Source: Escherichia phage XJA18-XJ-2024
Strand: one strand, 5' to 3'
Length of the DNA: 50,572 nt
Sequence record: PV584117.1
Part shown: piece after piece, positions 5,930 through 6,115 of the stretch
Numbering within the stretch: the first letter of the stretch is position 1
Layout of the letters: each line of letters begins with the position of its first letter
Made by a program: the position numbers and the translations under genes
The notes under the pieces: generated by a model
Database searches by the model: none
Seen by the model: the letters and a program-made list of their open reading frames with translations, nothing else
Told to the model about the DNA's origin: nothing

Positions 5930-6115
5930 AAATCAACTGTTACACGATAGACAACTGTTACACAACAATAATTATATATATAAAGCTAAAATTAAATATT
6001 ATCTATCTATATATATTATATAGAGTTTTTATCATATCTACCTGCGGTCGGGCGAGGTCGATTTTGTAACACCCATTCTAGTTACAAAAATAGACACCTG
6101 TTACGCAAAAAAATT
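5930..6115. repeat. AT-rich region with TGTTACAC/TGTAACAC iteron-like repeats and TATATATA runs
   Basis: direct repeats CAACTGTTACAC x2 plus further GTAACAC/GTTACGC copies and alternating TA tracts in a 527-bp non-coding gap. Confidence 0.5.

Follow-up and report, generated by a model that had tools for sequence, protein, structure and literature searches.

What is the role of the short repeats and alternating TA tracts that lie between the exonuclease gene and the lipoprotein gene of a T1-like phage? T1 belongs to the seven classic T phages, and its relatives are common candidates for therapy as well as notorious laboratory contaminants. An earlier note on this DNA had read the locus as an iteron origin of replication or a repressor operator array. 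No replication origin has been reported for T1-like phages in the literature searched. The SU57 genome paper found no origin, and the TLS genome paper found no iterons anywhere in the TLS genome (PMC11447400).

The window, which is the whole stretch of 50,572 nucleotides analysed here (PV584117.1), behaves as one complete, circularly permuted T1-like genome (Tunavirus, Drexlerviridae; ~91% identity to T1). Positions 4500-7500 are ~90-93% identical to many Tunavirus genomes, T1 included, as judged by BLAST. The repeats lie in an intergenic region of 527 bp and 33% G+C (gap A, 5660-6186). It is bordered by recE (4595-5659, minus strand), which encodes a RecE-type exonuclease (Pfam DUF3799/PDDEXK), and by cor (6187-6417, plus strand), which encodes a Cor-family phage lipoprotein (Pfam Phage_lipoprotein). 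The length and the neighbours of the gap are as the earlier note gave them. Its label "non-coding" is right in that the region lies between two genes, but relatives annotate a promoter, PrecE, and a 46-codon ORF inside it. PrecE is a near-consensus sigma-70 promoter on the minus strand (TTGACT-16-TATAAT, 5691-5718), and its pattern TTGACTAAA...TAnAAT is kept across Drexlerviridae. On the cor side, a plus-strand promoter (Pcor, TTGCAA-17-TACAAT, 9/12 match) is predicted at 6129-6157.

The 46-codon ORF (5927-5787, minus strand; CPTT1_049 in T1) begins with TTG and is open without indels in 14/14 Tunavirus genomes, with many amino-acid changes. It was rejected as a protein gene: its variable columns are distributed 10/19/16 by codon position, compared with 4/1/18 in recE. 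Third positions are not favoured, and this substitution pattern is not coding-like. A 35-codon ORF (5916-6023) was dismissed as well, since synonymous variation is wholly absent from it; it lies within the invariant block described below. A structured RNA was also rejected, as Rfam gave just a sub-threshold RybB match in gap A (19.7 bits against a gathering score of 40). No homologue of the element was found in the plasmids and E. coli genomes searched.

A pattern search for the octamer TGTWACRC gave nine matches in the window, and five of them fall in gap A (5938, 5956, 6065 and 6099 on the plus strand, 5823-5830 on the minus strand). The expectation was 0.11, and none of 5000 dinucleotide-preserving shuffles of gap A itself reached five. 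Four of these five octamers extend to the 12-mer CAMNTGTTACRC, for which the same shuffles predict 0.00 copies and never yielded four (0/5000). The whole window holds six copies of the 12-mer against 0.11 expected: four in gap A, one in a second, likewise A+T-rich intergenic region (gap B, at 36534) and one within a gene. A chance origin of the cluster in gap A is excluded. The count of at least six copies given by the earlier note has to be lowered to five strict octamers, four of them within 5930-6115; six or more are obtained only with looser GTWAC cores (8 sites).

Two copies of the 12-mer, both CAACTGTTACAC, stand in tandem on the plus strand at 5934-5945 and 5952-5963. Their starts are 18 bp apart, not about 21 bp as had been noted. 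The second copy is preceded by an overlapping heptamer, ATAGACA (5947-5953, plus strand), with which it makes up the composite ATAGACA-NN-TGTTACRC, and it directly abuts an A+T-rich tract with TATATATATA runs (5964-6039). This tract of 76 bp is ~88% A+T and is a candidate DNA unwinding element; the TATATA tracts of the earlier note were thereby confirmed. On the far side of the tract lies TGTAACAC (6065-6072, plus strand), in which the octamer core is inverted and which is invariant in 14 genomes. The window layout is thus two forward copies, the AT tract and one inverted core at 6065. Further towards cor, a second composite, ATAGACACCTGTTACGC, occupies 6090-6106 on the plus strand. Its octamer at 6099 reads TGTTACAC in most relatives, and it overlaps the predicted promoter of a relative. 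This composite is part of a 30-nt repeat that is 80% identical to 5947-5976, and its 12-mer at 6095 is the sole copy near Pcor, 23 bp upstream of the -35 hexamer. ATAGACA itself occurs four times against 0.14 expected and is joined to the octamer at 5947 and 6090. The minus-strand copy at 5823-5834, CAAGTGTTACGC followed by AATAGACA, is poorly conserved, with GTAAC changed to GTAAT in many relatives. No tandem phased array of at least three to four repeats was found in the window: two copies are in tandem, and the others are 110-143 bp off or inverted. The term "iteron-like" used by the earlier note therefore fits loosely, for the two tandem copies 18 bp apart, but not for the remaining three, which are dispersed.

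The AT tract is exceptional in its predicted stability. By nearest-neighbour energy, just one 80-mer of the genome is less stable than 5958-6037 (z 5.7). This least stable 80-mer (36655-36734, z 6.1) lies in gap B, and the next unrelated segment reaches only z 3.4. When gap A was aligned over 14 Tunavirus genomes, a block at 5895-6040, which contains the tandem 12-mers, ATAGACA and the whole AT tract, proved nearly invariant. Variable columns number 18/140 in the bins covering 5900-6039 (3 of them in 5980-6039) versus 113/380 in the remaining gap, and third codon positions of recE and cor vary freely across the Tunavirus alignment. Because the block is invariant while its flanks and the synonymous sites of recE and cor vary, the constraint is, as judged from this alignment, on the nucleotide sequence itself. 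Three changes are private to the window, all in the otherwise invariant block: one at 5936, where tandem copy 1 reads CAACTGTTACAC and 13/13 relatives read CACCTGTTACAC, and the others at 5895 and 5913.

The element has a second copy. Gap B (36424-37041) is a divergent early control region in which the T1 record opens. It contains a segment (element B, 36652-36745; ~36530-36745 with its repeats) that is paralogous to 5944-6022 of gap A (element A) and holds the least stable 80-mer. The two elements align locally with a score of 56; composition-preserving shuffles gave 27.4±3.6 and never more than 38. Element B is ultra-conserved even in T1, ADB-2 and ULIM2, where its flanks are ~70-80% identical. 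The 12-mer copy in gap B, the sole non-coding one outside gap A, belongs to a minus-strand composite, CTAGACAAATGTTACAC (36534-36550), ~110 bp from the paralogous segment. In the T1 sub-lineage (T1 1-538; ADB-2, ULIM2, ISF002), a tandem GTGTTAATCG in 3-5 copies replaces the TAGACA/TGTTACAC part of gap B. This replacement corresponds to window 36470-36660, and the adjoining AT block and the DUF3987 helicase are still ~99-100% identical. Because the repeats were replaced beside such well-kept neighbours, turnover is faster for the repeats flanking element B than for those at element A. The start of many T1-like GenBank records corresponds to window 36946, ~210 bp from AT block B; among them is the T1 record, in which a 2.8-kb terminal repeat is annotated from this point. 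If this record start is the pac cut, pac and element B would be neighbours.

The same architecture was found across the family. In Pocis76 (Hafnia), G29-2 (Hanrivervirus), mar001J1 (Warwickvirus), K46PH129 (Webervirus) and IME253 (Rtpvirus), recE invariably has 413-502 bp of non-coding DNA upstream, while the gene beyond it varies (tail fibre, cor, hypothetical, primase or anti-repressor). In each of these five stretches PrecE lies by recE, the centre is a TATATA-type tract, and the short repeats are specific to the lineage, namely TTGTTATC, ATCTTAC (10-11 copies) or GTTACA/TTACGC. The two least stable 80-mers are those of the recE-upstream gap and the early divergent gap in T1, K46PH129, IME253 and Pocis76 (Tempevirinae). 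The paralogy of elements A and B also recurs, with alignment scores of 157 against 27±4.8 for shuffles in Webervirus, 122 against 25±4 in Rtpvirus, 66 against 30±5 in T1 and 62 against 30±5.5 in Pocis76. Among metagenomic IMG/VR loci, 76 had enough upstream sequence for the comparison (RecE identity 49-99%). In 76/76 of them, stability over the ~17 kb of the locus is lowest, again by 80-mer, at 180-391 nt upstream of the recE start, mostly at 306-351 nt. The melting tract stays linked to recE whether the other neighbour is a cor, tail fibre or primase gene, co-directional neighbours included. Element A is always directly upstream of recE-erf-ssb, and in Webervirus it lies between the primase gene and recE. 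The earlier note had placed the repeats next to the recombination module, and this linkage to recE is conserved in all 76 loci.

The repeats of the IMG/VR loci include GATTACA ×6, GAAACAA ×3-4, GGGACAA ×8, ATCCTCC ×6 and ATCTTAC ×10. The repeat type is lineage-specific yet common to elements A and B of one genome: ATCTTAC occurs 10 times in A and twice in B, and one contig has TGGGACA(A), TGGGACAA, in 8 copies around element A and 8-10 around B. In this TGGGACAA lineage the repeats form a symmetric bracket (GGGACAAatatGGGACAA, the AT tract, TTGTCCCatTTGTCCC), with more copies beside PrecE. The repeats of other lineages show a 10-11 bp period. Two further features were seen in these gaps. A box, CGTAAATTT(A/C)GCGCAAAA, recurs at the recE-distal gap end in Tempevirinae and occurs twice in Webervirus, where the duplicated element includes it; at the corresponding place (6097-6126) the window reads GTTACGCAAAAAAATTTGTAATCGC, a loose resemblance. 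In Webervirus K46PH129, GGTAAGA...TCTTACC followed by a T-run lies just past the primase gene (26357-26395, recE-sense gap positions 20-57). This inverted repeat pair resembles an intrinsic terminator, and some "iteron" copies may double as terminator stems.

Taken together, these results show a selected cis-acting element, duplicated in the genome and found throughout the family, with repeats of a protein-binding type and an easily melted tract. To this extent the proposal of an iteron origin or an operator array is borne out; an origin is the favoured of the two, and the function is what we infer. The iteron-origin features found are the repeat clustering, an adjacent A+T-rich unwinding element and a place beside the replication gene module. 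We consider elements A and B candidate replication origins of the iteron-plus-unwinding-element type, present in two copies and bound by a putative phage protein, and we hold this reading tentatively, at slightly less than even confidence. It would comprise short lineage-specific repeats (here CAMCTGTTACAC) that bracket an easily melted A+T-rich tract of ~75 bp, twice per genome, with element A ~300-340 nt upstream of recE and the second copy in the divergent early control region. A phage-encoded sequence-specific protein would bind the repeats on either side of the AT tract, the tract would open, and the phage DUF3987-type helicase (40590-42221) and the Zn-ribbon primase (13-933) would then be loaded. 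The second copy may likewise be an origin, or else a site of fork arrest and switching, the role proposed for SPP1 oriR. The extra repeats near PrecE would probably link expression of the recE-erf-ssb operon to binding. The fuller version, in which A (~5895-6106) and B (~36530-36745) are the two candidate origins of T1 and of all Drexlerviridae, and a lineage-specific protein on symmetric iterons loads the DUF3987 helicase and primase, is more doubtful, although a real possibility. In this version one copy may be a theta origin and the other a fork-arrest site that triggers a RecE/Erf-dependent switch to concatemer synthesis.

Several lines of evidence favour an origin over simple promoter occlusion. 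The element is ultra-conserved and duplicated, keeps a fixed distance to recE and has lineage-specific repeats; distances of >215 bp and >165 bp separate the tandem pair from PrecE and the predicted Pcor, respectively; and the element persists where the flanking genes point the same way. The genome's own primase and DUF3987 helicase also favour this reading, as does the precedent of Bacillus phage SPP1, whose two origins each combine direct repeats with an AT-rich unwinding element (PMC6316719). However, the window has only two tandem copies, and their 18-bp spacing does not correspond to a helical repeat. The weak conservation of the 5823 copy also speaks against an origin, as does the difference in element B repeats between Tunavirus sub-lineages (GTGTTAATCG in T1) whose helicases are ~99-100% identical. 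In addition, both elements lie in promoter-rich early control regions, and ATAGACA resembles a -35 hexamer. GC skew was discarded as an origin indicator: it tracks gene orientation only and gives no independent support.

SPP1 offers a close parallel. Its oriL and oriR are, like elements A and B, two dispersed copies in a ~45-50 kb genome of a pac-type siphovirus, each made of direct repeats beside an AT-rich unwinding element. Like the window, SPP1 has a module of 5'-3' exonuclease, single-strand annealing protein and SSB that processes forks, and at oriR a fork stall followed by processing by these three proteins has been proposed (PMC6316719). On the other hand, oriL is inside the initiator gene 38 and its binder is gp38, whereas both T1-like copies are intergenic and their binder is putative. 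The window is also without a DnaB-type helicase/loader pair and has the DUF3987 helicase and a separate primase instead, and the SPP1 origins share no sequence similarity with elements A and B. The lambda ori, P1 oriR and the pSC101, F and R6K origins resemble the window in having short initiator-type repeats of lineage-specific sequence that adjoin or flank an AT-rich tract. In the SaPI ori, two iteron sets flank an AT-rich region beside primase and helicase genes, and P4 needs two separate iteron clusters, ori and crr. Classical iterons, however, are longer units (17-22 bp) that stand in tandem in 4-6 copies, with a phasing of about two helical turns, whereas the unit of the window is 8-12 bp, with two tandem copies and others that are dispersed or inverted.

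The candidate machinery was assigned from Pfam and PHROGs. It consists of the Zn-ribbon primase, an SF2 helicase (47944-49962) and the plus-strand DUF3987 protein (Pfam E 3.4e-42; "DNA helicase" in PHROGs). No Rep or O-type initiator gene was recognisable in the window by Pfam or PHROGs, and the DUF3987 helicase had no match among PDB sequences. A DUF3987 protein of a mobile element is a demonstrated 5'-3' helicase that partners a primase (PMC11724360). When the phage DUF3987 proteins of different genera were aligned and inspected by eye, variation was greatest in the C-terminal 70 residues. The gene is flanked by genes for two small proteins (40160-40576 and 42226-42633) called HTH/RipR-like in the T1 annotation. 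The C-terminal domain and these flanking proteins are plausible candidates for origin recognition. When Pir, the two HTH neighbours orf7 and orf10, and the DUF3987 C-terminus were compared with repeat type, no clear outlier was seen (four genera; SRT8 and IME347-like phages).

The strongest rival, which we regard as rather unlikely as the main function, is an operator hub like lambda OL/OR. The repeats would be operators of a phage regulator that switches PrecE and Pcor and the divergent early promoters of gap B, and the AT tract would be a promoter, an UP-element or curved DNA. The composite could then be a -35 hexamer plus an operator in an over-long 19-bp spacer (TAGACA-N19-TATATA at 5948; TAGACA-N19-TGTAAT at 6091). 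Both elements do lie in promoter regions, and element B contains an 11/12 sigma-70 match, TAGACA-18-TATAAT. Also consistent with operators are the 30-nt module at 5947 and 6090, of which one copy is an annotated promoter in a relative, the repeat copies just upstream of PrecE in other lineages, and the 7-bp palindrome TGTWACA, as expected for a dimeric helix-turn-helix protein. As at lambda OL/OR, two homologous clusters of short sites lie in two early divergent control regions, and a Cro/C2-like regulator (Pir) is encoded. However, the sites of the window are off identifiable core promoters, since the distances of the tandem pair leave no overlap with either PrecE or Pcor. In element A no acceptable -35/-10 pair at 16-18 bp spacing was found besides one 9/12 match. 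The most conserved part is the 75-bp 88% A+T tract, unlike in OL/OR, and 145 bp of nucleotide invariance exceed what a promoter or UP-element requires. Moreover, the T1-like element and its fixed distance are kept with co-directional neighbours, where a divergent promoter is not needed and PrecE would suffice.

T1 Pir (orf23) represses PrecE and its own promoter, and cAMP-CRP represses PrecE (Laganenka et al., PMC6737242), which fits an operator hub. However, the T1 reporters extended no more than 150 bp upstream from the start codon (PMC6737242), so that the effects of Pir and CRP map to 5660-5809, outside the repeats. Pir is therefore unsupported as the binder: the responsive T1 fragment excludes the repeats, and the pir promoter has no repeat copies in the window or in Webervirus. 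Other motifs were noted at these promoters. TCGTTTACG is common to the PrecE leader (5673-5684) and the pir promoter spacer (49989-50000), both Pir-repressed in T1, and CGTTTACG, found in the PrecE leader and at Ppir, is weakly enriched (5 against 1.6 expected). The pir promoter also carries an inverted repeat, CGTTTAC-N19-GTAAACG, around its -10 (49991-49997 / 50018-50024). The origin and operator readings are not exclusive, and the repeat copies near PrecE suggest regulatory coupling.

A dispersed repeat family of the genome was also considered. The 21-nt intergenic repeat of TLS, aaATAGCACnnnTTGnTAAAA, is of unknown function in the TLS genome paper, which reports similar repeats in T1 (PMC11447400). 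It shares with the gap A composite a 5' ATAG, a TGnTA core and an intergenic location, but its ATAG-to-TGnTA spacing is off by 2 nt. The gap A repeats are not members of the dispersed ATAGCAC 21-nt family, ATAGCACnnnTTGnTAAAA, which has 0 matches in 5660-6186 at up to 3 mismatches and whose module structure is absent there. In the window this box has 28 matches at up to 3 mismatches against 2 expected, with 26-28 co-oriented sites. Examples are 29355-29373, 30728-30746, 47516-47534 and 50026-50044 on the minus strand and 36827-36845 on the plus strand, and the box always points the same way as the downstream gene. About 20-23 nt past the box is a short GC-rich hairpin. Its 3' arm continues into a -10-like box (TATAGT, TATAAT or TATATT), an RBS comes next, and the whole is a promoter-like module of ~60 nt. 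The locations of the repeat include the region upstream of dam, the hol side and the pir leader, within which it is directed towards the helicase gene. The hol and dam promoters are reported to be Pir-activated and that of pir Pir-repressed, and because copies of ATAGCACnnnTTGnTAAAA sit at these promoters, Pir may bind this box.

It is improbable that the repeats are a cluster of sites for host factors (DnaA, IHF, CRP, ArcA or OmpR-like), or that the element is a purely structural AT-rich spacer without a dedicated phage binder. TGTTACACA (5956, 36533) is one mismatch from the relaxed DnaA box TTWTNCACA, there is one exact IHF consensus at 5785, and the repression of T1 PrecE by cAMP-CRP (PMC6737242) also involves a host factor. 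However, only 1/5 gap A copies, that at 5956, is within one mismatch of the DnaA box, which is not kept in other genera, so that an oriC-type DnaA-box cluster was rejected. Gap A is also without a CRP-like site at up to 2 mismatches. The repeats change among phages of E. coli (TGTTAC, GATTACA, TTGTTATC, GAAACAA). Because they change between lineages infecting the same host species, DnaA, IHF or CRP was rejected as the main explanation, and a phage-encoded binder is argued for.

Known pac sites combine short repeats with bent DNA, with SPP1 pacL/pacR and the P1 pac hexamer clusters as models. The least probable of the roles considered, and a very improbable one, is that of a packaging site whose repeats and bent AT-rich DNA would serve as the target of the small terminase, with B as pac and A as a secondary or ancestral copy: T1-like phages do use headful packaging from a pac site (PMC11447400) and the T1 GenBank records open, with their terminal repeat, close to element B, but that start may be a convention of the records and not a mapped end, two pac sites at a distance of 20 or 30 kb would predict two packaging series instead of the single submolar pac fragment described (PMC11447400), element A is tied to recE and not to terminase genes, and lineage-specific repeats would need covarying small terminases. 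Even together, packaging, host-factor or other roles remain unlikely, if less so than any one of them.

Two candidate loci can now be named across the family, and the sequence rules that mark them are clear: the repeats are specific to a lineage, the distance to recE is fixed and each genome has two copies. The question of the T1 origin, which is unmapped in the literature searched, becomes directly testable. The loci also offer a handle for finding the initiator and for explaining the extrachromosomal persistence of T1 reported in 2019. If the elements are instead an operator hub, they would define an early regulatory switch of T1-like phages. If the two-origin reading is true, they would represent a type of initiator-helicase system that is new among the phage origins described so far.
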